A DNA stretch of 12,109 bases from a virus (taxonomy: Duplodnaviria; Heunggongvirae; Uroviricota; Caudoviricetes), in the IMG/VR virus record IMGVR_UViG_2531839476_000007, positions 1-12,109 of that record, one strand, 5' to 3'. Within the stretch, counting starts at the first letter, position 1; each line of letters starts with the position of its first letter. A program made the translations under genes and the position numbers. This document shows positions 1-12,109 of this stretch, in pieces. The notes under the pieces are model-generated. The model did no database searches and was not told the DNA's origin. It saw nothing but the letters and a program-made list of their open reading frames with translations.

Positions 1-149
1 ACAAAATCTATAACCATGAATTAATTCATTCACAAGACCTGATCATGCTGCGGTCTGGTGAATTTTCTAAATCGCCTATTCGAGTTTCATTTTGCCCGTT
101 CTGTGGTGAAAGTCTGAAAACGTGGGAAGCGGAGGCAACCAGTGAATAA
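1..149 (+). CDS. 3' end of an upstream gene, 5'-truncated by the window edge; hypothetical protein with a C-terminal CxxC pair
   Basis: Frame 3 is open from the window start to TAA at 147-149 (…MLRSGEFSKSPIRVSFCPFCGESLKTWEAEATSE). Its stop overlaps the GTG start of the next ORF (GTGAATAA), typical of coupled phage genes. Not in the ORF track because it is short and partial. Confidence 0.3.
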   Translation, partial: KIYNHELIHSQDLIMLRSGEFSKSPIRVSFCPFCGESLKTWEAEATSE

Positions 150-786
150 CCGCTTTTACATGATGTGCTTGCGTGAAACTGTGGGTAATAACGCCTCATT
201 CCATTGCCATAACGGCAATGGTTACAGTTCTGATATCGATCGCGCTCATGTTTACACGCTGGAAGAAGCCCAAAAAGCCTGGAATTGTGGACGAGATATC
301 GATCAGCCTGTTTGCGCTGATAGCGTGGATGCAATGGCTGTGTGGCACGTTGATTGCCAGTACATCCCCACAGAAAGCCTGATTGAGTCAGATTGCACTG
401 CGTATGTGGCCTACAAAAAAGGTAGCTGGAACGGCAACGATGTTTACTGGCTTCAACACGGTGGATTGCCAACAGATGACTTCAGTAAAGCGACCATCTT
501 TAGCGTCGCCAACAAAAACGAACCAGGAATAGTTTGGTTGCCATTTTCCATTGCTGATGCAGCAAAGCGTCGGACGTTCAATATCAATAACTTTAACCGC
601 AGAACAATGGTTCAGGGCGCAGGTTTGGTCATGCCTGACTGGTTGAAAGAGCAGAACAGAAGAAAGAAGTCGCGAAGCGGGAAGGTGCGTTGGAATTGTC
701 CGCATTGCGGAAAAATAACCTGGCAGTACAGCCCATATGATTTTGAAGGCTGTAGTGATTACAACTGTGAAGGATGGCGAGAATGA
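142..786 (+). CDS. hypothetical phage protein, 214 aa, with a C-terminal Cys cluster (CPHCGK…CSDYNCEGW)
   Basis: ORF-track ORF. GTG start at 142 is preceded by GGAGG at 131-135 (6-nt spacing); ATGs at 160/163 are alternatives. No family recognised. Confidence 0.55.
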   Translation: MNNRFYMMCLRETVGNNASFHCHNGNGYSSDIDRAHVYTLEEAQKAWNCGRDIDQPVCADSVDAMAVWHVDCQYIPTESLIESDCTAYVAYKKGSWNGNDVYWLQHGGLPTDDFSKATIFSVANKNEPGIVWLPFSIADAAKRRTFNINNFNRRTMVQGAGLVMPDWLKEQNRRKKSRSGKVRWNCPHCGKITWQYSPYDFEGCSDYNCEGWRE

Positions 787-1529
787 CAATTGACTATCAG
801 GCACTGCGTGAGGCGGCAGAGCGTGCAATTCCGGCAATGGAACACCTGTTAATGTTGCCAGTTGATGATGATTTGTTAACTGAACAGGAACTTAAGGATT
901 ACGGTGTGGATATTGATGCGCTCAACGCCTTCAAATTTCTGACCGGACCAGAAACCGTGCTGGCACTACTGGATGAACGGGAAAGAAACCAGCAATACAT
1001 CAAACGCCGCGACCAGGAGAACGAGGATATTGCGCTAACGGTTGGGAGGCTGCTAATCGAAAACGGCCAGCTTGTTGCCGATACGCTACGCCACTTAGCT
1101 GATAACGAAATCGACTCTGATTATTTTGCTATCACCTCAACGAATGAGAACGGTACTGAAATTGATCATGAGATGGCTATTACCGATTACGCACTGCAAG
1201 CTGCCGGAACTGTAGACGAATTGGTTGCAGCGCTGGAATCCGCAGAGAAGCGCATAGCAGAACTGGAAGCACGGGAAATAAAACCAGCCAAAGGCGAAGT
1301 TCTTGTCGTTGTATCTGGTTTTACTGGTTGCGGAAAAAGCGCCATTGCCGGGGAAATAGAAATCGCGATGAAGGCTATTGGTGTACCGGTTAAGTGGACT
1401 AATGGCGATGCAGAAAAGCGCATGACTGGCGCTGACTGGCTGACAGCGATTGAGATGTACAAACCAACTGTGCGCATCGCGGAAGTTAATGTGCCACGCG
1501 CCGCTGGCATTCGCATCAAAGGAGAGTGA
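783..1529 (+). CDS. hypothetical acidic/coiled-coil phage protein (about 248 aa) with a Walker-A-like GFTGCGKS motif near the C-terminus
   Basis: ORF-track ORF 774..1529; start is ATG 774 or ATG 783 (MTIDYQALREAAERA…). Overlaps the stop of the preceding ORF. P-loop-like motif is encoded around 1314-1340. Confidence 0.6.
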   Translation: MTIDYQALREAAERAIPAMEHLLMLPVDDDLLTEQELKDYGVDIDALNAFKFLTGPETVLALLDERERNQQYIKRRDQENEDIALTVGRLLIENGQLVADTLRHLADNEIDSDYFAITSTNENGTEIDHEMAITDYALQAAGTVDELVAALESAEKRIAELEAREIKPAKGEVLVVVSGFTGCGKSAIAGEIEIAMKAIGVPVKWTNGDAEKRMTGADWLTAIEMYKPTVRIAEVNVPRAAGIRIKGE

Positions 1530-1534
1530 GTGAT

Positions 1535-1732
1535 ATGGATAAAAACACCACTGCTTACTGGAATCTGTCACTTGATACCGAATGCCCCAAATGTGGTCAC
1601 AATTTCGATCTGCTCTGTGATGCTGATTTCTGGGAGTTTTCTGGAGCAAAACAGGCATGTGAAGAAATAAAAGGTTACGAAACATGCTGCCCAGAATGTA
1701 ACCATGAATTTAAAACAGATTTTGTGTATTGA
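1535..1732 (+). CDS. small Cys-rich zinc-ribbon-like protein, about 65 aa (CPKCGH … CCPECNH)
   Basis: ORF-track ORF 1526..1732. ATG at 1535 sits 8 nt after GGAGAG (1521-1526); the GTG at 1526 overlaps the previous stop. Two CxxC pairs about 40 residues apart. Confidence 0.55.
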   Translation: MDKNTTAYWNLSLDTECPKCGHNFDLLCDADFWEFSGAKQACEEIKGYETCCPECNHEFKTDFVY

Positions 1733-1742
1733 GGCATAACGA

Positions 1743-2933
1743 ATGACCACTTTTACTAAAGAACAATTAATAGAGATAATTAAGCGCAATATAACGGTTA
1801 TGGATCGTTATCCTGATTTAGTAACTGCACAAATGGATCTGGAAGTATACAAAATCGCGCTGGCATCACTGGAAGCAGAACCAGTTGCTTATATTTTCAA
1901 ACATCCGGCCGGGAAATTATTCTGGGCTTTAACGGATGAAAGCAATAAAGAGCAACCGGACGTTATTCCTGTTTATGCTGACTCACCTGCGCCGGTTGTG
2001 CCGGATGAAATAGACGTAAACGATGTACCAAGGGCGGTGACATATTTCAAGACACACAGAGATTGTTACGCAGATGGCTGGAACGCCTGCCGCGCCGCCA
2101 TGCTTCAGTCCGGAAACTTTCGGGAAAATAAGAATTCGTCAACCAATAATTTTCGGGAAATCGCGGAAACGTCAACCAACTATCCGGTAATTCCTAGTGA
2201 GGTGTTGTCCGCAATCCTGAAGGTTGCCAAGATTCGTGCCGATTTCGATGATTTTGACGGTGACAGGCGAGGTATCGGTGATTGTCTGGATGAGGCTGAG
2301 CAAGAGCTTATCGTTACCATTAACAAATATGCCAGTCAGTTGGCAGCAGAACCGATAGCGACTAATGACGTTCGAGAGCAAACAGCCGTTCCGCCAGTTC
2401 CTGTAATACAGGCTGATGTCGCGCAGGCAATTGAAAAACTCAAACGGAAATTAGTGGAATGCAATCGCTATAACTACTGCGCAGATGCAGTTAAGGGCGT
2501 TGAGTATGCCTGCCACGCTGCCATGCTTCAGGGTAGCCAACCTGTAAGCCAAACTTACAAGTTTCCAGTTAATACACCTTGCCAGGATGCGCCAGCCCAT
2601 ATCTGGCTGCAAACAGCTGGAGTATGGCCAGAAGATGGCGAGTTAAGCGAATTAACGTGGTGCAGCCACAATCAGCACCATGATGACACGCTATATGTTC
2701 GAGCTGACTTGGTAAATGGCAATTCTCAGGTAACTCCGGATGGTTGGATAAGCTGTAGTGAGCGAATGCCCGCTCAAGATGATTGGATTTTAATTTATTC
2801 AAAGCACGGTGAGTATATGGCAGGACAGGTGCAAGGGGAATACGTGGAGTTGAGCGACGGCACTTTATCCTGGTTAGGGAACGCCTTGTTCTGGATGCTG
2901 CTACCAGAACCTCCCCAGGAGGCAGGTCAATGA
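1743..2933 (+). CDS. DUF551-type phage protein, 396 aa, with internal duplications
   Basis: ATG 1743 preceded by GAGG at 1731-1734. The C-terminus (WISCSERMPAQDDWILIY…FWMLLPEPPQ) resembles the DUF551 pattern recalled from enterobacterial prophage proteins (W…ER(L/M)P…W…(M/L)P(L/E)PP). Contains a 33-bp tandem duplication and a repeated AAMLQ motif. Confidence 0.7.
   Translation: MTTFTKEQLIEIIKRNITVMDRYPDLVTAQMDLEVYKIALASLEAEPVAYIFKHPAGKLFWALTDESNKEQPDVIPVYADSPAPVVPDEIDVNDVPRAVTYFKTHRDCYADGWNACRAAMLQSGNFRENKNSSTNNFREIAETSTNYPVIPSEVLSAILKVAKIRADFDDFDGDRRGIGDCLDEAEQELIVTINKYASQLAAEPIATNDVREQTAVPPVPVIQADVAQAIEKLKRKLVECNRYNYCADAVKGVEYACHAAMLQGSQPVSQTYKFPVNTPCQDAPAHIWLQTAGVWPEDGELSELTWCSHNQHHDDTLYVRADLVNGNSQVTPDGWISCSERMPAQDDWILIYSKHGEYMAGQVQGEYVELSDGTLSWLGNALFWMLLPEPPQEAGQ
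2118..2183 (+). repeat. in-frame imperfect 2 x 33-bp tandem duplication inside the DUF551 gene
   Basis: Unit 1 (2118-2150) tttcgggaaaataagaattcgtcaaccaataat and unit 2 (2151-2183) tttcgggaaatcgcggaaacgtcaaccaactat share 24/33 nt, including exact 10-mer and 9-mer blocks. They encode FRENKNSSTNN / FREIAETSTNY. Confidence 0.8.
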
Positions 2934-3013
2934 GCTGGCCTGAAGCATTCGCAACGGTAGGAATTGTGATGGCGGCAGCACTGGGTTTGTATTCAATTTG
3001 TCGCTGGTGGTAA
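2930..3013 (+). CDS. unlisted small hydrophobic peptide, 27 aa (MSWPEAFATVGIVMAAALGLYSICRWW)
   Basis: Perfect Shine-Dalgarno AGGAGG at 2917-2922, 7 nt before ATG 2930. The ATG overlaps the upstream TGA (ATGA) and the stop TAA 3011-3013 lies 2 nt before the next ATG. Predicted single transmembrane helix. Below the track's 60-aa cutoff. Confidence 0.45.
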   Translation: MSWPEAFATVGIVMAAALGLYSICRWW

Positions 3014-3015
3014 CG

Positions 3016-3249
3016 ATGAGGAAATTAACTTTTGTAGTCGAATTTGAGGATGGTAAAGAGCCACCTGTTAGCGCCAATCTTGATGTTGCTGGTGGAAGGC
3101 TTGTTTCGGTTCTATTTGGTGACTACCGAGATGACTTCTTCCAACCAGAAGAAGTTGATGTAGTGCGAGAGGCATTAAACGAGTTAAGTGTTGACAACGA
3201 TGATGCTCATGCGGAAATCATCCAAAAAATGGAACTGCTAACTCACTAA
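3016..3249 (+). CDS. hypothetical acidic protein, 77 aa
   Basis: ORF-track ORF 2998..3249 (TTG start); ATG 3016 (MRKLTFVVEF…) is more plausible and sits directly after the small ORF. No family recognised. Confidence 0.5.
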   Translation: MRKLTFVVEFEDGKEPPVSANLDVAGGRLVSVLFGDYRDDFFQPEEVDVVREALNELSVDNDDAHAEIIQKMELLTH

Positions 3250-3297
3250 ATTATCAATTATGGTGCTATAACCTACGACACCGAGAGAAAATTTATA

Positions 3298-3420
3298 ATG
3301 TCAAAAGTAAATGTTTTGATTTTTTCAGCAATTGTTGGCTTTGGTTTTACTGCCGGAGTGCAGATTTATATTACGTGGGAAAAAATCATCAACTACGCAT
3401 GGAGTTGTTTTATTAAGTGA
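3298..3420 (+). CDS. unlisted small membrane protein, 40 aa (MSKVNVLIFSAIVGFGFTAGVQIYITWEKIINYAWSCFIK)
   Basis: ATG 3298 to TGA 3418-3420. The stop overlaps the GAGG RBS of the next gene. An extended -10-like TGCTATAAC lies at 3264-3272 upstream. Hydrophobic N-terminal helix. RBS is weak (GAGAGA). Confidence 0.35.
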   Translation: MSKVNVLIFSAIVGFGFTAGVQIYITWEKIINYAWSCFIK

Positions 3421-3427
3421 GGTAAGT

Positions 3428-3721
3428 ATGTGGAGAGGTAATAATCATGGCAAAAGCCAGATGATACTTACCGAATATAAGCTAGACCACAAAACCAATA
3501 AATCACGCTCAGTATATTTGCTCCGGCACAATAGTCGCGTAAGAAATACCGTGCTGGAACAAAATCTGACAGTTGAAATGGATAATTACGGGGGATTCAA
3601 GCCAACAATTTCACTTGATGATTTTCCTCGTGGTTTAAGCGAAAGAGAAGCAATGCTGAAATTAGCAGAATGGCTACAAAGATTAAGCATTGCTATTGAA
3701 GATAACTGGTCTGAACCTTAA
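3428..3721 (+). CDS. hypothetical protein, about 97 aa
   Basis: In frame with track ORF 3332..3721. ATG 3428 is preceded by GAGG (3419-3422, 5-nt spacing). The track's upstream start at 3332 has no RBS and lies inside the small ORF. Confidence 0.5.
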   Translation: MWRGNNHGKSQMILTEYKLDHKTNKSRSVYLLRHNSRVRNTVLEQNLTVEMDNYGGFKPTISLDDFPRGLSEREAMLKLAEWLQRLSIAIEDNWSEP

Positions 3722-3727
3722 ATTTAT

Positions 3728-4102
3728 ATGATGACACTAAAACATTTTCTTGACCGCCCATTATGGGCGGCAGCCGCAGGCTATGACTTTAATTATATGG
3801 ATTGCATGTCTTATACCGCCAATGCATACGACCATTCCTTCAGTCTGCTGTTTAATTCTTTAAGAATATTGCCGCAAACAGAAGTTGGAGAGCTTCATTT
3901 ATGGCTATTGGGCTTTATCGCGGCTGTCGTTGGTATTGCTGTATGGCCTTTTATTTTCTGGCTGGTGGCTGTTGTAGTGTGGGTTAAGTGCAAGACATAC
4001 CGGAAAAAGTATTTCTTAGGTGATGGAATGACTGATATTGCCAAAATGAACATTGAAGAATGGACTAAGGAATGTGAAAAGAAATGGCGCAAAAAGAAAT
4101 GA
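3728..4102 (+). CDS. hypothetical membrane protein, 124 aa
   Basis: ORF-track ORF. Long hydrophobic segment LWLLGFIAAVVGIAVWPFIFWLVAVVVWV followed by a basic C-terminus (…KKWRKKK). The 3' end overlaps the next gene. Confidence 0.55.
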   Translation: MMTLKHFLDRPLWAAAAGYDFNYMDCMSYTANAYDHSFSLLFNSLRILPQTEVGELHLWLLGFIAAVVGIAVWPFIFWLVAVVVWVKCKTYRKKYFLGDGMTDIAKMNIEEWTKECEKKWRKKK

Positions 4103-4734
4103 CCAGAATCACTGAAGAGCGCATATCAGAGATTATTTCCCGTATCGAAATGTATGGTCACGGTGCTGGATATACGGCAGATGAAGTATTGGAAATAGCC
4201 CAGCAGATGCTGGCCTTGAGACAAAAAGAGCAACATGAAAGTAATACGTGTAGATTGAATTTTGAGCATTGGCTGGAACAGCAACGCGGGAAAATCGATG
4301 TGGACTGTGGTTGTGTGTCCACTGAAACATTCATGCACTGGCTGCGGGTAGCTTACGAGGCTGGCAACTATCCGGATATTCCGGATAGTTCGGTGCCAGC
4401 ACCAGGAAAGGGCGTCACCGGTGAACGTATCCGAATTAAGCCGCATGTTTATCGCGAACTGGTTAACCGTCTCCACGATACAGCGATCAAGTGTGCTGGC
4501 ACCCAGCAATTACGAGAAAGAATTAGCCGTGTTTTGGGCGACGTTATTACACCAGATCATCATAAACAAGCCGAGAAAAGTGGCCTGGAAAGGTGTCGCC
4601 TTGAGGCGGCATTAAACATTAAGCCGGGGCATACGCTTGGCATTATTGATGCACTATTGGTTCATAAGATGGCCAGGGCTTTATTGCCGCTGGTGGCTGA
4701 AAAGCATGAGGTGGACCATGCCAACGAAAGCTGA
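4084..4734 (+). CDS. hypothetical soluble phage protein, 216 aa
   Basis: ORF-track ORF. Start ATG 4084 overlaps the previous gene (alternative ATG 4099). No family recognised. Confidence 0.55.
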   Translation: MAQKEMTRITEERISEIISRIEMYGHGAGYTADEVLEIAQQMLALRQKEQHESNTCRLNFEHWLEQQRGKIDVDCGCVSTETFMHWLRVAYEAGNYPDIPDSSVPAPGKGVTGERIRIKPHVYRELVNRLHDTAIKCAGTQQLRERISRVLGDVITPDHHKQAEKSGLERCRLEAALNIKPGHTLGIIDALLVHKMARALLPLVAEKHEVDHANES

Positions 4735-5002
4735 ATTACAGGTGCGCGTAGATGAGCTTGAAAAAGAGAACGCGAGCCTCAAAAAAATGCTGTCGCGGGC
4801 GGAAAGGGAATTATCAGGCAAATTATTGCCAGAAGAACTGCCACCAGCAGATATACCTGATCGAGTGTCCTGGTGGATGAAGTATTTCCGTGCACCGTGG
4901 GAGGCGTTTTGGTGCTACGACCATCGCAGATGGTGTGATGAACTTGATAGCAATTTTCCCTACTTTGCGGAAGGGAACACCTGCCCTCAATGCAGGGGAT
5001 AG
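4718..5002 (+). CDS. hypothetical protein, about 94 aa, coiled-coil N-terminus and C-terminal CPQCRG
   Basis: In frame with track ORF 4637..5002. ATG 4718 is preceded by GAGGTGG (4708-4714) and overlaps the end of the previous gene. Last gene of the left-hand + strand block. Confidence 0.5.
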   Translation: MPTKAELQVRVDELEKENASLKKMLSRAERELSGKLLPEELPPADIPDRVSWWMKYFRAPWEAFWCYDHRRWCDELDSNFPYFAEGNTCPQCRG

Positions 5003-5337
5003 CATTTGACGAAATCGATCACCCTATCCTGAACTTCAGAAAGAAGGTCTTTTTCACGCGCCAGGACGTCAGGATATTGACGTTCTGGCCTTACCAGATG
5101 CCGGAGCTTCCCATTAAGCAGAATGGCCTCAGAAAACACTTTTACGCTGTGCTTTATCCCCTCTGTTTCACTTTTCAGCGTCAAAATAAAGCGCAATTGC
5201 TTATTAGCCTGATTCGGATTCAATACACGAATTTGCAGTTCGTCTATGCTGTTCCGCAATGGGATTGATGCCACCACACTGGTGCAGTCTCTGATTGTCT
5301 GAATTGAACGGCTAACATTGAGAACGTTATTGTGCAT
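4987..5337 (-). CDS. doubtful antisense ORF, 116 aa, in the gap between the left gene block and hot
   Basis: Only long ORF covering the 367-bp gap 5003-5369, but there is no convincing RBS (AGGAG lies about 14 nt upstream of the ATG) and no recognisable family. A + strand ORF 4990..5268 competes for the same DNA. Confidence 0.2.
   Translation of the reverse strand: MHNNVLNVSRSIQTIRDCTSVVASIPLRNSIDELQIRVLNPNQANKQLRFILTLKSETEGIKHSVKVFSEAILLNGKLRHLVRPERQYPDVLAREKDLLSEVQDRVIDFVKCYPLH
5060..5089. repeat. 12-bp-stem inverted repeat (hairpin) centred on GACGTC
   Basis: gccaggacgtca (5060-5071) / ggatat loop / tgacgttctggc (5078-5089); 11 Watson-Crick pairs plus one G-T. Lies 58 nt after the stop at 5002. 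No adjacent U-tract on either strand. Confidence 0.5.
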
Positions 5338-5369
5338 GTGCCTGATCCACTAACTCCTGGAGGTTTCTT

Positions 5370-5621
5370 GTGTCAGATCGAAATATAGCAGCTAAAAGCC
5401 AGGAAGAGCGAGACAAGGTGAACGTAGACCTTGCCGCCAGCGGCGTTGCTTACAAAGAACGGCTGAATATACCTGTGATTGCAGAGCAGGTGGCCCGTGA
5501 GCAACCGGAAAACCTGCGCGCCTATTTCATGGAACGGCTACGGCACTACCGGCAGTTAAGCCTCCAGTTGCCAAAAGGGAGCGATCCGGTGTATCAGAAC
5601 GAGGATGCACCAAAAAAATAA
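5370..5621 (+). CDS. hot: Hot, homolog of the DNA polymerase III theta subunit (HolE), 83 aa
   Basis: GTG 5370 is preceded by GGAGG (5359-5363). The core [43 protein letters not shown] matches my recollection of E. coli theta ([43 protein letters not shown]). Position before humD fits the P1 gene order. Confidence 0.8.
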
Positions 5622-5680
5622 CGGCAAGATGGGGGAGAAATGTGATTAGCCCCCAGCGTGGCGCGCCTACAAACCCCGCT

Positions 5681-5726
5681 TTCACAAACTATGCCTTTTC
5701 AATGTATACTGTATGAATAAACAGTA
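5681..5726 (+). promoter_or_regulatory. SOS-type promoter with a LexA box overlapping the -10, upstream of humD
   Basis: -35 TTCACA (5681-5686), -10 TATACT (5705-5710), and TACTGTATGAATAAACAGTA (5707-5726), which fits the LexA consensus TACTG-N10-CAGTA. RBS GAGG 5732-5735 and ATG 5745 follow. Confidence 0.8.
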
Positions 5727-5744
5727 TCATTGAGGTAAAACGCT

Positions 5745-6134
5745 ATGGGCTTCCCTTCTCCTGCGGCGGATTATGTTGAAAGCCGAATTTCTCTTGATCA
5801 GCAGATAATTAGACATCCTTCAGCGACCTACTTCATGCGGGCAGCTGATAGCCATCACCGTGAGGGAATATTGCAGGGTGCTTTGCTGGTGGTTGATTCC
5901 TCGCTTACTCCGGTTGATGGTTCTCTGCTTGTGTGCGCTATGGAGGGTGAATATCGCATAAAGAGATACAGGAAGTATCCGCGCCAGCACCTGGAGGACT
6001 TAAGCACCGGGAAGAAAGAGGCGTTACCAGTAGATGACGATGGATACACGGGCAGTAATGCTGTTTTTGGTGTGATCACTCATGTCATCAATGATGCCCG
6101 AAGTGGGGAATTTGATGATTGTCCGGTTATTTAA
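5745..6134 (+). CDS. humD: HumD, a UmuD'-like S24-family protein lacking the UmuD N-terminal pro-segment, 129 aa
   Basis: Begins MGFPSPAADYVE…, aligning with UmuD residues just after its Cys24-Gly25 self-cleavage site (…CG/FPSPAADYVE). Ser in ADSH and Lys in YRIKRYRK align with the UmuD Ser/Lys dyad. An in-frame TAA at 5736-5738 rules out a longer N-terminus. Confidence 0.85.
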   Translation: MGFPSPAADYVESRISLDQQIIRHPSATYFMRAADSHHREGILQGALLVVDSSLTPVDGSLLVCAMEGEYRIKRYRKYPRQHLEDLSTGKKEALPVDDDGYTGSNAVFGVITHVINDARSGEFDDCPVI

Positions 6135-6169
6135 GCTGCAAAGTGCTGGTGCTTTATGCCTGTGAAGTT

Positions 6170-6198
6170 TATAATTGTGTACACATAACGAGTACACG
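6170..6198 (+). promoter_or_regulatory. phd-doc promoter -10 and two palindromic operator half-site pairs
   Basis: Perfect -10 TATAAT (6170-6175), then perfect 10-bp palindrome TGTGTACACA (6176-6185) and imperfect palindrome CGAGTACACG (6189-6198, 8/10), centres 13 bp apart. This is the arrangement expected for Phd autorepression. Confidence 0.6.
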
Positions 6199-6206
6199 AG
6201 GTGTTT

Positions 6207-6428
6207 ATGCAATCCATTAACTTCCGTACCGCGCGTGGCAACCTTTCTGAAGTGCTCAACAATGTTGAAGCCGGGGAAGAGGTTGAAATCACCCGCAGAG
6301 GCCGTGAGCCAGCAGTAATTGTCAGCAAGGCTACTTTCGAAGCCTACAAAAAAGCGGCGCTGGATGCTGAATTTGCATCCCTGTTTGACACCCTGGACTC
6401 CACCAACAAGGAACTGGTTAACCGATAA
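6207..6428 (+). CDS. phd: Phd antitoxin (prevent host death), 73 aa
   Basis: [73 protein letters not shown] matches my recollection of P1 Phd. Stop TAA overlaps the doc ATG (TAATG at 6426-6430). Confidence 0.92.
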
Positions 6429-6808
6429 TGAGACATATATCACCGGAAGAACTTGTTGCGCTTCATGATGCGAATATAAGCCGCTACGGCGGCCTGCCGG
6501 GAATGTCTGATCCGGGTAGGGCAGAGGCCATTATCGGGAGAGTTCAGGCCAGAGTTGCCTACGAAGAGATCACCGACCTTTTCGAAGTCTCCGCCACCTA
6601 CCTGGTGGCTACAGCGAGAGGGCATATATTCAATGATGCCAATAAGCGTACCGCGCTAAACAGTGCGCTGCTATTTCTACGCCGTAACGGGGTGCAGGTA
6701 TTTGATTCACCTGAACTGGCAGACCTTACCGTAGGCGCTGCGACTGGCGAGATATCTGTATCTTCTGTCGCCGACACGTTACGTAGATTGTATGGTTCTG
6801 CGGAGTAG
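6428..6808 (+). CDS. doc: Doc toxin (death on curing), Fic-fold kinase, 126 aa
   Basis: [39 protein letters not shown]… matches recalled P1 Doc and contains the Fic-type motif HIFNDANKR. Translationally coupled to phd. Confidence 0.92.
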
Positions 6809-6812
6809 ATTA

Positions 6813-6992
6813 ATGGCACGTAAATACAACAAGTTGTCCCGTGAAGCGTTAAAGATGCTTCTTGATGGCGTGAGCCGCCGCAAGGTAAAGCAATACCTGG
6901 TTGGTAAGCAAATTGGAGTCAGGACCGCTATTGCTGTGTTATGCCGTCAGGAAATGGTTGTGCTTAAACAGAGAATGCCGGGCAGCAGATAA
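6813..6992 (+). CDS. pdcA: PdcA-like small basic protein (post-doc), about 59 aa
   Basis: ATG 6813 preceded by GGAG (6802-6805); in frame with track ORF 6792..6992. Named from its position directly after doc in the P1 gene order, not from sequence recognition. Confidence 0.45.
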   Translation: MARKYNKLSREALKMLLDGVSRRKVKQYLVGKQIGVRTAIAVLCRQEMVVLKQRMPGSR

Positions 6993-7019
6993 AGCCCAAT
7001 CAGTGATTAAAGGTGTGAT

Positions 7020-8063
7020 GTGAAAGCCATAATTACTCCCTTTGTACAGAAAGAGCTTGGCCTCGCCACGTTCAAAGTGGATCAGGAGGTCAGAAAGCTG
7101 GTGGAGGCTGGCCGTAAATTTATTATGGAGCCGGTGCCGCGTGAGTTAATCGAGCACATGGAAGACGGCCTCGTTGTTACCGAGCAAACCATGGCAACAA
7201 ATGAGGCGTTGCAGCCGTTTTTTAACAGCGATGAACTGTTTCGCCGTATTGGTGGAATTGACTCGCTGGTGGCGTGGTTGCGTAGGAAAGAGGGTCAATG
7301 CCAGGCCGCAGATCGTAGTTGGTGTGACAACCATATTGTCCACGCTGAACGAGACAATAGCGCGGTGTTGTTGTGCTGGCATCACGATAACCATTACCGG
7401 ATGCGTGGTTTTAATGAGCTGAAAGAAACGCTGCACAATAATCGCGTTAACTGGATACTGGATGTCGCCCGTCAGGAAATGGGCCTTTCAAATAGCCATG
7501 ATTTAAGTATTCAGGAGCTGTGCTGGTGGGCTTTCATGCGCAACATGATGCACCTGATGCCGGAAGAAGTCTGCCGCATATCAATAAATAAGATGAAGGC
7601 TACTCCGCAGGATAGCGGACCTCTGAAAGAGGCGGATATTCGCCCGTATGACGATCGCGCTACAGCATATGTTCAGATGATGGAAGAACGCGCCGCGCCG
7701 ATGCGTGCAAAAGTATGCCCTGTGGATGTTGACTCCGACCCAGGTATGGCGCATTTCAAAATACCAAAACTTCAATCGCTAAAATTGCCCGAGTACATGG
7801 ACTTTGTGGCTTCCCGTCCATGCTGTGGCTGTGGAGCTGCGGGAGCTGGCGCTCACATTACGCCTTATATCGTTCGTCATAGTCGATTATGCGCGCATGA
7901 CATTTATGCTATTCCTCTGTGCCAGTCATGCCAGCGTGATATTGAGCGTGACCGCGATAATTGGGAGAAGACGCACGGTAGGCTGGCGATGCATCAACGA
8001 TTGTTCTTTGATTACGCGCTTGGAGTCGGCGCTATCACAAGTCATTCGTCGAGTGTTAGATAA
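7020..8063 (+). CDS. pdcB: PdcB-like protein, 347 aa, with Cys/His-rich HNH-like motifs
   Basis: GTG 7020 preceded by AGGTG. Contains CWHHDNH and a C-terminal cluster PCCGCG…[29 protein letters not shown] resembling the HNH pattern CxxC…H…N…LCxxC. Name is by position in the P1 order. Confidence 0.65.
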
Positions 8064-8064
8064 A

Positions 8065-8107
8065 ATTGCTCTAATGTATTGCTATTTCTTTAATCGAGGG
8101 TATTATA
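8065..8107 (+). promoter_or_regulatory. C1-repressor operator-like site overlapping the -35 of a putative lpa promoter
   Basis: ATTGCTCTAATGTATTG (8065-8081) matches the recalled asymmetric C1 operator consensus ATTGCTCTAATAAATTT at 14/17, first 11 positions exact. Candidate -35 TTGCTA (8079-8084) and -10 TATTAT (8101-8106) / ATTATA (8102-8107). Confidence 0.55.
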
Positions 8108-8115
8108 TTCGACGT

Positions 8116-8139
8116 TGATTAGTTGACATGGGCTAATCA
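8116..8139. repeat. 7-bp perfect inverted repeat TGATTAG-N10-CTAATCA in the lpa leader
   Basis: TGATTAG (8116-8122) and CTAATCA (8133-8139) flank a spacer containing TTGACA (8123-8128). Sits between the putative -10 and the lpa RBS AGGTGA (8142-8147). Confidence 0.5.
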
Positions 8140-8151
8140 GTAGGTGACAGG

Positions 8152-8604
8152 ATGTTACTTAACTGGCAGGGACGCCACTTCATGGAAATAAATCACTCAC
8201 GAATAACATCGTACGAGATTGCGGATTACATGATCCGCACTAAATCTCTTCTATCAGCGAAAGAACTCGCAGCAATTCTTGAAAAGGAATACCCGCATCT
8301 GGATGTCGATAAGCGCGATGTTTATCTGCGCTTAAAGGCTATCGCTGTGTCTAAGTATTCGTCTGTTTTGATTGATGACAGTACACGCCCACGTAGATTT
8401 CAGATCCACTCTCTGAATCCTGAATTCTTTCGCCGCAGCCGCGCTCCGCGCCGGTTTGATGAAAAACTCCAGAACGAACTCTATATGACGCAGGACGAAA
8501 AGGAACGCCGGGAGCACCAGCCTTGGGTGATGGCGCGTCAACTTTTCAATAAGGTGGTCCGTCAGCACCGTCATTACGGTAATGCCACATCCGCACGTAT
8601 CTGA
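8152..8604 (+). CDS. lpa: Lpa-like late promoter activator (P1 gene 10), 150 aa
   Basis: ORF-track ORF; ATG 8152 with RBS AGGTGA (alternative ATG 8182, MEINHSRI…). Assigned from its position immediately upstream of pacA and the C1-operator-like site upstream. I do not recall the Lpa sequence itself. Confidence 0.6.
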   Translation: MLLNWQGRHFMEINHSRITSYEIADYMIRTKSLLSAKELAAILEKEYPHLDVDKRDVYLRLKAIAVSKYSSVLIDDSTRPRRFQIHSLNPEFFRRSRAPRRFDEKLQNELYMTQDEKERREHQPWVMARQLFNKVVRQHRHYGNATSARI

Positions 8605-8614
8605 TTGATTGCTT

Positions 8615-8633
8615 GCCCGTTCCGGGCCTTTTG
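8615..8633 (+). terminator. weak intrinsic terminator-like hairpin between lpa and pacA
   Basis: GCCCG-TTC-CGGGC (8615-8627) followed by CTTTTG (8628-8633). Short 5-bp GC stem and only four U's, so at best a partial terminator. Confidence 0.3.
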
Positions 8634-8690
8634 ACATGTGACTTTCGTTACCCTCGCGTCAAAAAGAGTTTTATACGAAAGGAAGCATAA

Positions 8691-9884
8691 GTGACCTGGG
8701 ACGATCACAAGAAGAATTTTGCTCGCCTGGCGCGAGATGGTGGTTACACCATCGCACAGTATGCCGCCGAGTTTAATCTTAACCCTAATACCGCACGTCG
8801 TTATCTCCGTGCCTTCAAAGAAGACACCAGGACAGCGGACAGCCGCAAGCCAAATAAGCCAGTCAGGAAGCCTCTAAAAAGCATGATCATTGATCACGCT
8901 AATGATCAACGTGCATGTGATCACATTGTGGCTGAAATGGCTGAAAAACAAAGAGTTAATGCTGTTGTCAGTGCCGCAGTCGAGAACGCTAAGCGCCAAA
9001 ATAAGCGCATAAATGATCGTTCTGATGATCATGACGTGATCACCCGCGCCCACCGTACCTTACGTAATCGCCTGGAACGCGACACCCTGGATGATGATGG
9101 TGAACGCTTTGAATTCGAAGCTGGCGATTACCTGATAGATAACGTTGAAGCGCGGAAGGCCGCGCGCGCTATGTTGCGTCGGTCCGGGGCCGATGTTCTG
9201 GAAACCACTCTTCTGGAAAAGTCTCTTTCTCATCTCCTTATGCTGGAGAACGCCAGGGATACGTGTATTCGCCTGGTGCAGGAAATGCGCGATCAGCAAA
9301 AAGACGATGATGAAGGTACTCCGCCTGAATACCGTATCGCGAGCATGCTAAACAGCTGTTCCGCGCAGATAAGCAGCCTGATCAACACCATTTACAGCAT
9401 CCGGAATAACTATCGAAAAGAAAGCCGGGAGGCGGAAAAGCACGCTTTATCTATGGGGCAAGCTGGCATTGTTAAGCTGGCATACGAACGAAAGCGTGAA
9501 AATAACTGGTCAGTGCTGGAAGCGGCTGAATTCATCGAGGCGCATGGAGGAAAAGTGCCTCCCCTGATGCTGGAGCAAATCAAAGCCGATCTGCGTGCTC
9601 CTAAGACCAATACCGATGATGAGGAAAACCAAACAGCATCTGGCGCTCCATCACTTGAAGATCTGGATAAAATCGCGCGAGAACGGGCCGCCAGCCGCCG
9701 CGCTGATGCCGCATTGTGGATTGAGCATCGTAGAGAAGAAATTGCCGATATCGTCGATACAGGTGGTTATGGTGATGTCGATGCGGAAGGCATATCAAAC
9801 GAAGCATGGCTTGAACAGGATCTGGACGAAGACGAGGAGGAAGACGAAGAAGTTACCCGCAAACTGTACGGGGATGATGATTAA
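8691..9884 (+). CDS. pacA: PacA, small terminase / pac-site recognition subunit, 397 aa
   Basis: GTG 8691 with RBS AAGGAAG (8680-8686). Begins [28 protein letters not shown]… and contains the pac hexamer clusters within its 5' third, as described for P1 pacA. Stop overlaps the pacB ATG (TAATG at 9882-9886). Confidence 0.88.
8884..9042 (+). other. pac packaging site: 4 + 3 TGATC(A/G) hexamers, each carrying a GATC Dam site
   Basis: Left cluster TGATCA at 8884-8889, 8891-8896, 8903-8908, 8918-8923. Right cluster TGATCG 9014-9019 and TGATCA 9026-9031, 9037-9042. Span of about 160 bp inside pacA matches the recalled architecture of the P1 pac site. Confidence 0.8.
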
Positions 9885-11368
9885 TGGCCAGAAGTTGCGT
9901 AACGGACCCACGTTGGCGCGAGCTTGTGGCGCTATATCGTTATGACTGGATTGCGGCCGCTGATGTGTTGTTTGGGAAGACACCAACCTGGCAGCAGGAT
10001 GAGATCATTGAGTCCACGCAGCAGGACGGCAGTTGGACAAGTGTGACCTCCGGCCATGGTACTGGTAAATCGGATATGACGAGTATCATTGCAATACTCT
10101 TCATCATGTTTTTCCCCGGCGCTCGCGTCATTCTGGTCGCTAACAAAAGACAGCAAGTCCTTGATGGTATTTTCAAATACATAAAGAGCAATTGGGCTAC
10201 TGCTGTTAGCAGATTCCCGTGGTTGTCGAAGTATTTCATTCTTACAGAAACGTCTTTTTTTGAGGTGACTGGCAAGGGTGTTTGGACAATATTGATAAAG
10301 TCCTGTCGCCCCGGGAATGAGGAGGCGTTGGCTGGTGAACACGCCGATCATCTCTTGTATATCATCGACGAAGCGTCGGGTGTGAGTGATAAAGCATTCA
10401 GTGTGATAACAGGTGCGCTGACCGGTAAGGATAACCGTATTCTGCTTCTTTCCCAGCCTACGCGACCTTCAGGCTATTTCTACGATTCACACCACAGACT
10501 AGCTATTCGCCCGGGAAATCCTGATGGATTGTTTACTGCGATAATACTGAATAGTGAAGAATCTCCGCTTGTAGATGCAAAATTTATACGAGCAAAACTT
10601 GCGGAGTATGGCGGTCGTGATAACCCCATGTACATGATCAAAGTACGTGGTGAATTTCCCAAATCTCAAGATGGCTTTCTTCTTGGTCGTGATGAGGTTG
10701 AGCGGGCGACGCGGCGAAAGGTCAAGATTGCCAAAGGATGGGGCTGGGTTGCATGTGTTGACGTTGCTGGTGGCACAGGACGAGATAAGTCCGTTATTAA
10801 TATCATGATGGTGTCCGGCCAGCGAAATAAACGCCGTGTAATCAACTATCGTATGCTGGAATACACAGACGTTACAGAAACGCAGTTAGCCGCCAAGATT
10901 TTCGCAGAATGTAACCCAGAACGGTTCCCGAACATAACCATAGCTATTGATGGCGATGGCTTGGGGAAATCGACGGCTGATCTAATGTACGAACGCTATG
11001 GCATTACCGTCCAGCGTATCCGCTGGGGTAAAAAGATGCACAGCCGTGAAGATAAAAGCCTTTATTTCGATATGCGCGCTTTCGCGAATATTCAGGCGGC
11101 AGAAGCTGTAAAATCAGGGCGTATGAGGCTTGATAAGGGGGCTGCGACTATAGAGGAAGCATCAAAGATACCGGTAGGGATAAATTCCGCAGGTCAATGG
11201 AAGGTGATGTCAAAGGAAGATATGAAGAAAAAACTCAACCTGCACTCACCGGACCATTGGGATACATATTGTTTCGCTATGTTGGCGAACTATGTTCCCC
11301 AGGATGAAGTGCTTAGCGTCGAAGACGAAGCGCAGGTTGATGAAGCTCTGGCATGGCTTAATGAATAA
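9884..11368 (+). CDS. pacB: PacB, large terminase (ATPase/nuclease) subunit, 494 aa
   Basis: ATG 9884 coupled to the pacA stop. Walker A GHGTGKS and Walker-B-like [11 protein letters not shown] are present. Size and position match P1 pacB. Confidence 0.88.
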
Positions 11369-11418
11369 CTCATTAACCATGCCGGATAGAAACTATTGCG
11401 CGCTTTCGGGGTTGTCGT

Positions 11419-12109
11419 TTACTGGCTGCCCCTTCTTAGTTTTACGGCTGCGCGTAACTGATGCGGCTGATTTGACCTTTTTCTCTTCGCGAGTGATGGC
11501 AATTGTTTTTTTACATTTTCAATATCTGCCAGGCGATATATTTTTGCCTGCGGCCAGCGGTCGCAGATGATCGGTTCTATAGAGTCATAAAGGCTAAATT
11601 TTGCTTTCTCGAATTCACCGTTGATGATGATTCCATCACGGAGAGTTTCATCGCAGATAAACACACCACACAGCGGCACATGGTAACTAACTGATTTACC
11701 ATCATTGTAGTTAGGGCTACTGGAAATGTAATGGACGCGCAGCATTGTTTCGCTAAAGCCGTGTACACGCATACGGAATTTTTCATCCTCCGGGTACTGC
11801 TTCATTAGCTCTTTTGTTGCTTCCAGGTTCTCTATGTATTTCGCACTGTGCTCATTGATCCCCGCGCTTTTCTGGATGCGAATGTCCTTATCAATCAGAT
11901 GAATAATGCGGCCAGCGGTCATGTTGACGCTGTTCACAGCTTCTGTCTGATAAGTTGTAACCTTACGCACACCGCGAAGGATGTTAGGCACTGGATATAA
12001 AATAGTCTTTGGGATATTGAGGTCTGGGTACTGTTCCAGTTCTCGCGCCATTAAAGTCCATTTATCAATTTCAGCCTGAATGCTGTCCGTTTCTTTGAAC
12101 GGCAGAACG
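11419..12109 (-). CDS. c1: c1 immunity repressor, 3' portion only; the 5' end lies beyond the window
   Basis: The - strand frame is open from the window edge (…VLPFKETDSIQAEIDKWTLMARELEQ…) to the stop at 11419-11421, so the track's 210-aa ORF is an N-terminally truncated view. Convergent with pacB, as in the P1 map. Sequence recognition is partial. Confidence 0.65.
   Translation of the reverse strand, partial: VLPFKETDSIQAEIDKWTLMARELEQYPDLNIPKTILYPVPNILRGVRKVTTYQTEAVNSVNMTAGRIIHLIDKDIRIQKSAGINEHSAKYIENLEATKELMKQYPEDEKFRMRVHGFSETMLRVHYISSSPNYNDGKSVSYHVPLCGVFICDETLRDGIIINGEFEKAKFSLYDSIEPIICDRWPQAKIYRLADIENVKKQLPSLAKRKRSNQPHQLRAAVKLRRGSQ

Follow-up and report, generated by a model that had tools for sequence, protein, structure and literature searches.

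Among the described proteins that stand closest to the one considered here are YdfU and YbcO. In a survey of the His-Me fingers, the domain families DUF968 and DUF1364 form group 7, with both proteins as members and YbcO as the solved structure (PDB 3g27) (PMC5714182), and an earlier paper had described DUF968 proteins as ending in an HNH motif of the zinc-finger kind (PMC4118853). This work concerns a P1-lineage relative of these proteins, PdcB, whose gene pdcB lies in a stretch of viral DNA of 12,109 nucleotides (Caudoviricetes; IMG/VR record IMGVR_UViG_2531839476_000007, positions 1 to 12,109), called the window below and meaning the whole of that stretch. The window is a mosaic segment of a P1-like phage-plasmid, and its top single record is Salmonella phage SJ46 (77% coverage, 95% identity). 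A first-pass annotation had noticed HNH-like Cys/His motifs in PdcB and suggested a metal-dependent nuclease, encoded by a gene that it took to be functionally uncharacterised. The literature on pdcB does list its function as unknown, but the label ‘HNH endonuclease’ is already carried in RefSeq by P1 pdcB and P7 upf95.7, and in the PHROGs as well. As these labels and the DUF968 papers predate it, the idea of an HNH-type fold is right but not new. The non-obvious point is that the catalytic residues of this fold have been lost throughout the P1 clade, whilst its scaffold was kept.

PdcB and the YdfU-type proteins (YdfU itself, from the Qin prophage of E. coli K-12, and its lambdoid counterparts) are alike in length and collinear over residues 1-340 at about 25% identity. 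They share one architecture, made of an N-terminal segment, an N-terminal zinc beta-beta-alpha module, the DUF968 middle and a C-terminal zinc His-Me finger, and their genes both lie just upstream of a late-gene regulator. Their other neighbours differ, as the YdfU-type genes follow rusA in the ninR region and precede Q, whereas P1 pdcB follows phd-doc-pdcA and precedes lpa. They also differ in the finger itself, where the YdfU-type proteins keep DPHH..KAHD..H-x3-H and PdcB has TPYI..CAHD..Q-x3-E. YbcO, a DUF1364 protein of the DLP12 prophage, is a single finger of 96 amino acids (aa), to which PdcB adds about 255 N-terminal residues; it keeps the general-base histidine H32 and H58, the histidine of its C-x2-C-H, whereas PdcB has I284 and Q305 in their places. 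In the colicin E7 and E9 DNases the HNH motif reads HH...N...H...H, and the active relatives of PdcB resemble it in having two histidines side by side where strand 1 ends and two more that are one helical turn apart. PdcB is without all four colicin-type histidines and, unlike the colicin DNases, has a putative structural Cys4 zinc site. P1 also encodes Ref, a RecA-dependent HNH endonuclease (PDB 3plw) with no detectable sequence similarity to PdcB. In Ref the HNH active site is intact and nuclease activity has been demonstrated, neither of which holds for PdcB.

Family membership of PdcB

The gene is 98.6% identical to P1 pdcB at the nucleotide level, and its product begins with MKAIITPF, which is conserved from residue 1 across the relatives.

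7020..8063, plus strand: pdcB coding sequence, 347 aa, GTG start and TAA stop, taken from the list of open reading frames (ORFs) and the sequence

It is clear that PdcB belongs to the DUF968/YdfU family within the His-Me (HNH) finger superfamily. Pfam DUF968 (PF06147) matches residues 161-337 over profile positions 1-171, with 170.4 bits against a gathering cut-off of 27.8 bits (E 4.6e-50); PHROG 96, ‘HNH endonuclease’, matches the full length (E 3e-128), and phrog_11007, a family with no assigned function, matches residues 2-134. A profile search of 1.84 billion representative proteins returned only 204 relatives at E <= 0.001. By tblastn, full-length collinear homologues at about 25% identity were found in 155 phage genomes, mostly lambdoid and several of them annotated ydfU, with PdcB residues 1-340 covered in 171 of 175 phage records; the P1 record itself states 25% identity of the pdcB product to P76162. 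The full-length relatives aligned numbered 46, from which a clean alignment of 36 sequences (A2) was rebuilt; residue counts out of 36 refer to A2, and all 173 collected proteins were aligned to its profile with hmmalign. Compared by hhalign with YbcO, whose sequence was confirmed to be that of 3g27, the 36-sequence family alignment gave a probability of 83% (E 8e-6), in a register that places the HH of the family on YbcO A31-H32 and its [C/H]-H on C57-H58. Direct searches of the PDB were less telling: PdcB alone gave only a meaningless match to a designed protein (E 5.3), and hmmsearch with the 36-sequence family profile matched no entry, YbcO included. NCBIfam gave no match for PdcB.

Some of the collected proteins (P0033, P0048, P0056, P0064, P0085, P0086 and P0148) carry an identical YdfU-like N-terminus joined to tail-fibre, GpJ tip-attachment, portal or glycine-rich C-termini. 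Because one N-terminal sequence joins unrelated virion proteins, they resemble chimeras of metagenome assembly or junctions left by prophage recombination; the joins to tail-fibre, portal and GpJ sequences (P0048, P0085, P0086, P0033, P0056) were rejected as real fusions and are taken to represent one YdfU-like gene.

The C-terminal finger

The motifs on which the first-pass annotation was built are all present in PdcB: CWHHDNH at residues 119-125, PCCGCG at 267-272, a string of 11 letters at 279-289, LCAHD at 290-294 and PLCQSCQRD at 299-307. Except for the first, they belong to the C-terminal finger, whose features are the following.

7785..8039, plus strand: C-terminal His-Me (HNH-type) zinc finger, catalytically degenerate; residues 256-340, Pfam DUF968 positions 78-171
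7821..7832, plus strand: C268-C-G-C271, first Cys pair of the putative zinc site; C268 in 36/36 relatives, C271 in 27/36
7866..7871, plus strand: Y283-I284, at the catalytic HH columns of the family, the second H of which corresponds to YbcO H32
7890..7901, plus strand: C291-A-H293-D294, equivalent to the K-A-H-D of the family (K in 31/36, H in 28/36, D in 36/36), with K replaced by C
7920..7946, plus strand: C301-Q-S-C304-Q305-R-D-I-E309, second Cys pair; beyond it, Q305 and E309 occupy the columns of the two helix histidines

The consensus of this finger in relatives outside the P1 clade is C-x2-C ... D-P-H-H-[I/L] ... G-x-K-A-H-D ... P-L-C-R-x-[C/H]-H-x-x-L-H. A first AlphaFold model of the full-length protein, from 13 sequences and with a mean predicted local distance difference test score (pLDDT) of 59, is confident only for residues 60-180; in the finger it predicts strands at 281-286 and 295-300 and a helix at 302-310, which is the beta-beta-alpha-metal topology of the superfamily. 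The profile search with DUF968 and the A2 alignment bear out the paired cysteines as conserved putative zinc-finger ligands around a beta-beta-alpha unit. All members of the P1 clade have C268, C271, C301 and C304, and in A2 the second pair is represented by C301 in 29 of the 36 sequences and, at position 304, by C in 16 and H in 11. D294, aligned with the D of YbcO K-P-P-D, is the invariant Asp in the place of the Asn/Asp that braces the hairpin.

The catalytic core is another matter. At columns 283, 284, 291, 305 and 309 the family has H, H, K, H and H (31, 32, 31, 31 and 31 of 36, respectively), and PdcB has Y, I, C, Q and E. Where strand 1 ends, the place of the general-base histidine is thus taken by I284, and on the helix Q305 and E309 stand in place of a metal-binding His or Asn. 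The losses are shared by all members of the P1 clade, P0020 and P0021 (37-38% identity) among them, with Y/F at 283, I/L/M/Q at 284, Q/Y/A at 305 and a variable residue (A, E, R, V or S) at 309. Among the relatives with a complete finger in the 173-protein alignment, only P0065 is degenerate outside this clade. The finger of the P1 clade has kept the zinc scaffold and H293-D294, and has lost the catalytic residues. The suggestion of an HNH-like metal nuclease therefore stands as to fold and family (a zinc finger of the DUF968, His-Me type) and falls as to the catalytic core. H279 and H287, which had been counted into that core, lie in or beside a clade-specific insertion (H279 is within its four residues, which are peculiar to close P1 relatives), and neither is constant even from one P1-like phage to another.

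The histidine at the end of strand 1 acts as the general base in colicin DNases, the HNH domain of Cas9, endonuclease VII, I-PpoI and Serratia nuclease, and we know of no characterised His-Me nuclease without it. Given that the general base is a histidine in the characterised enzymes, an aliphatic residue in its place should abolish the canonical mechanism. PdcB could nonetheless be an active metal-dependent HNH/His-Me endonuclease, cutting with its C-terminal finger in recombination, host DNA attack or defence. Such an activity would agree with the family membership, with the beta-beta-alpha plus Cys4 architecture, with the invariance of D294 and the conservation of H293, D311 and Q305, and with the strong purifying selection on the finger described below; moreover, the Mg2+ ligand of some His-Me nucleases is an Asn, Asp or Glu and not a His. 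We regard it as unlikely all the same, because across the clade the general-base column holds I/L/M and its neighbour Y/F, and because the lysine and both helix histidines are replaced. Pfam gives PdcB no match to any HNH model besides DUF968, HNHc_6 included, which active-type relatives do match, if weakly, and pdcB is dispensable for both lytic growth and lysogeny.

One YdfU sub-clade (P0037, P0045, P0055, P0058, P0074, P0076, P0092, P0101, P0122, P0169 and P0170) shows the pattern opposite to that of PdcB. C271 is changed to T, N or S in all of its members and C301 and/or C304 to S, H, R, A, E or Q in most, whilst the full HH..H..H set is kept.

The degenerate finger is under purifying selection. 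Its mean pairwise identity within the P1 clade is 81%, against 70% for the N-terminal module, and in the comparison with Cronobacter phage JK004 the proportion of nonsynonymous differences (pN) is 0.18 and that of synonymous differences (pS), which are near saturation, 0.70. From this higher conservation and the low pN relative to pS it follows that the finger is not decaying and is still used for something. Whatever the use, pdcB is non-essential: its knock-down by CRISPR interference gives an efficiency of plating of 0.68 and its deletion is tolerated (PMC10695390), and pdcB::kan phages form stable lysogens (PMC10067587, PMC10999674). The gene is also among the most conserved ones of P1-like phage-plasmids (PMC9603915).

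The N-terminal module

The motif CWHHDNH, read in the first-pass annotation as part of the HNH pattern, belongs to a separate module, where it forms a putative zinc knuckle.

7188..7499, plus strand: N-terminal zinc beta-beta-alpha module (predicted), residues 57-160, not covered by any Pfam family
7299..7301, plus strand: C94, first putative zinc ligand, C in 35/36 relatives
7323..7325, plus strand: C102, second putative zinc ligand, C in 23 and H in 11 of 36
7374..7394, plus strand: CWHHDNH, residues 119-125, zinc knuckle at the junction of hairpin and helix, with putative ligands C119 and H122 (7383-7385)

A second AlphaFold model, of residues 57-165 and from a 38-sequence alignment (A3), reached a pLDDT of 95 and a predicted template modelling score (pTM) of 0.86. 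It consists of three helices, a hairpin (106-111/114-119), a helix (120-129) and a long helix (132-153). C94 and C102 come ahead of the hairpin, strand 2 finishes with C119 and the first helical turn contains H122, so that the predicted ligand layout is that of a zinc-stabilised beta-beta-alpha finger. Across the relatives the four ligand columns read C, C/H, C and H/C, and columns 102 and 122 covary: among 90 non-identical relatives there are 44 with C+H, 29 with H+C, 13 with H+H and only one with C+C (Fisher's test 8e-12, not corrected for phylogeny). This covariation supports a single metal site in the module, which, to judge from the combinations that occur, seems to prefer three cysteines and one histidine. 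The module probably binds zinc through C94, C102, C119 and H122. Within CWHHDNH itself, W120 and D123 are conserved, and H121, N124 and H125 differ among the relatives beyond the P1 clade. Taking both ends of the protein together, the retained positions go beyond chance clustering: PdcB has 12 Cys and 16 His, and eight positions (C94, C/H102, C119, H/C122, C268, C271, C301 and C/H304) stay Cys or His in relatives of about 25% identity.

It could be asked whether this module is the real catalytic HNH centre, standing in for the dead C-terminal finger. The wording of the motif invites such a view, and so does the modelled beta-beta-alpha unit, but the relatives have no conserved histidine at the end of strand 1 of the module (residues 105-111), where the general base would be expected, and we hold the proposal to be highly improbable. 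Pfam found no HNH or zinc-finger family either in the N-terminal 160 residues of PdcB or in the 38 N-terminal modules, and Foldseek found nothing in the PDB below E 1.6. Compared by hhalign, the module gave a probability of 2% (P 0.022) with the C-terminal finger and of 0.2% with YbcO. Since the former comparison, though in structural register, scores so low, no internal duplication is claimed.

Residues 1-56 and the middle region

The remaining parts of the protein are two.

7020..7187, plus strand: conserved N-terminal segment, residues 1-56, pLDDT below 50 in the full-length model, part of the phrog_11007 match
7500..7784, plus strand: first half of the DUF968 profile, residues 161-255, with an LSxxELCWWA helix and the motifs KE(A/S)D and VDxDPG..PK

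Mean pairwise identity within the P1 clade is 80% for residues 1-56, and reaches 86% in residues 201-255 (7620-7784), the best conserved part of PdcB. The full-length model predicts no strands in residues 161-255, with low confidence there, and its pLDDT is below 50 over residues 185-255. Residues 201-255, which AlphaFold modelled with a low pLDDT, contain the KE(A/S)D and VDxDPG..PK motifs found throughout the family; they may serve for binding and take up a fold only once a partner is bound. Some DUF968 proteins of Gram-positive phages have been proposed to carry an Orf-like domain (PMC4118853). In the middle region of the PdcB family a domain like that of lambda Orf (1PC6) was rejected, with hhalign probabilities of 0.1-0.3%.

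Genomic setting

Over 1.5 kb around pdcB the window is 98.6% identical to P1 and 99.1% to SJ46, and the gene order is phd, doc, pdcA, pdcB, lpa, pacA/pacB.

6201-6428: phd, upstream of pdcB
6428-6808: doc, upstream of pdcB
6792..6992, plus strand: pdcA, ORF of 66 aa with a 17-nucleotide (nt) overlap with doc, directly upstream partner gene of pdcB
7009..7015, plus strand: Shine-Dalgarno sequence AAAGGTG, 4 nt ahead of the pdcB GTG (AAGGTG at 7010-7015), read from the sequence
8065..8080, plus strand: Olpa, C1 repressor operator (ATTGCTCTAATGTATT), beginning 2 nt past the pdcB stop, as in the P1 annotation
8079-8106: promoter-like site of lpa
8152..8604, plus strand: lpa, late promoter activator (Pfam BPP1_LPA, E 2e-57)

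PdcA has no match in Pfam, NCBIfam or PADLOC; its true start may be the ATG at 6813, just past the doc stop, since the alignment with phrog_3345 begins at residue 8. Neither a promoter nor a convincing terminator was found between Pphd and pdcB, which makes co-transcription of phd-doc-pdcA-pdcB plausible, if only by inference. A search with the Olpa pattern gave one match against 0.03 expected. The operator overlaps the -35 of the lpa promoter, and from its placement transcription reading through pdcB in the lysogen would encounter a repressor-bound site. Far from pdcB, positions 1-5400 of the window (the pmg/upf/hot/lxr region) are mosaic relative to P1, and no single location in any phage record accounts for over 77% of the window; the mosaic part is consistent with the published ‘highly variable region’ of P1-like phage-plasmids, from pmgT to humD.

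The first-pass annotation had drawn attention to the position of the gene between a toxin-antitoxin pair and the late activator. The order is as it described, but the link to the toxin-antitoxin pair is incidental: the pdcB homologues of Cronobacter phage JK004 and of the metagenomic contig L002 have different upstream genes, with an lpa homologue directly downstream. As the pair is absent there, a functional tie to phd/doc was rejected. The intact relatives of lambdoid phages are encoded in the ninR region, where they come after rusA and either immediately ahead of Q or in its vicinity. P0021, another degenerate member, is found among early accessory genes of a 95-kb contig, with no adjoining lpa. 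Genes of the PdcB/YdfU family thus occur directly upstream of or near a late-gene regulator in unrelated phage types. P1-like elements have lpa as this regulator and lambdoid phages have Q, and there is no homology between Lpa and Q. The loci that combine such a gene with a late regulator are these.

Window, 7020-8604
L003, 3001-4582
L002, 376-1940
L004, 3501-4819
L007, 4633-8057

The niche of the lambdoid relatives, between the replication genes and Q, is like that of the ninR recombination functions Rap/NinG and Orf/NinB of lambda. A His-Me finger is predicted at the end of Rap as well, but the survey assigns Rap/NinG to group 24, as against group 7 for DUF968 (PMC5714182).

This setting bears on a further explanation, by which PdcB would not act on nucleic acid at all and its zinc modules would serve as scaffolds for protein interaction, either in lpa and late-expression regulation or as a decoy or inhibitor of a nuclease of the host or of a rival. 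The order pdcB-lpa is conserved in P1-like elements without phd/doc and ydfU adjoins Q in lambdoid phages, the protein is acidic to neutral, and the best conserved stretch in the clade is the unstructured 201-255. However, a place ahead of the late regulator may merely mirror how the operon is laid out, with the early/nin region ending there, PdcB is not known to have a partner or a regulatory phenotype, and knock-down of pdcB leaves plating unaffected whereas that of lpa is lethal (PMC10695390). The PADLOC defence-system models matched neither PdcB nor PdcA at E up to 1. On balance, we find it quite improbable that PdcB has left nucleic acid altogether.

The HNH proteins of the HK97 gp74 type are needed for DNA packaging and are encoded next to the terminase genes. 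PdcB differs on both counts, since its loss is tolerated and lpa, with its promoter, intervenes before pacA. A role in packaging-associated processing, which the first-pass annotation had also raised, was rejected on the ground that pdcB is dispensable whereas pacA and pacB are essential (PMC10695390).

A nuclease relative that may no longer cut

The explanation that we favour, at slightly better than even chances, is that PdcB is a relic of a ninR-type His-Me nuclease, stabilised by zinc and no longer cutting, which persists as a dispensable accessory and probably still binds nucleic acid. It is the P1-lineage member of a YdfU/DUF968 family whose lambdoid kin lie in ninR after rusA and before Q. 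It would consist of two zinc-stabilised beta-beta-alpha modules, an N-terminal one (57-160) with no catalytic histidine in any relative and a C-terminal one (256-340) that is a genuine His-Me/HNH finger. In most relatives the latter has the full catalytic set, in which strand 1 ends with HH, strand 2 is preceded by K-A-H-D and the helix carries H-x3-H. As the cysteines are kept and the catalytic residues replaced, PdcB most likely folds and binds zinc like its relatives, without phosphodiester cleavage by the HNH mechanism. The analysis shows that PdcB belongs to the family, that the zinc ligands are conserved and the catalytic residues lost, that purifying selection acts, and what the gene context is; zinc binding, loss of activity and binding to DNA are all things that we infer, and the substrate still bound would be the nucleic acid that the ancestors of PdcB cut.

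More specifically, there is an even chance, in our estimate, that PdcB is a conserved pseudo-nuclease, in that the P1-like lineage inactivated a ninR-type HNH nuclease and kept its zinc scaffold under strong selection for a new, non-cutting job. The changes involved would be HH to YI, K to C, H to Q and H to E. PdcB might, for instance, bind DNA in a structure-specific manner, take part in regulation connected with the adjacent lpa, or act as a decoy where the host or a rival has a nuclease-based system.

Several points weigh against the favoured explanation. The C-terminal finger is only moderately confident in the full-length model (pLDDT 54-86), and the inactivity of PdcB is read from its sequence. 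Q305, E309, D294 and D311 could still hold Mg2+, the invariant H293 might serve as a substitute base, and a retained, unconventional activity would be just as compatible with the strong purifying selection that acts on the finger. In addition, PdcB is mildly acidic (isoelectric point 6.5) and its finger has a net charge of about zero, which gives no support to strong non-specific binding of DNA.

P1 is in standard use as a genetic tool, its phage-plasmid kin spread resistance genes, and pdcB itself serves as a marker for the polymerase chain reaction and as a neutral insertion site. With the catalytic residues gone and the zinc scaffold kept, the annotation ‘HNH endonuclease’ is probably misleading for the P1 clade; if PdcB is indeed a pseudo-nuclease, the label now spreading through P1-like genomes is functionally wrong. 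A comparison of PdcB with the intact YdfU-type proteins would give the first functional handle on the YdfU/DUF968 family.

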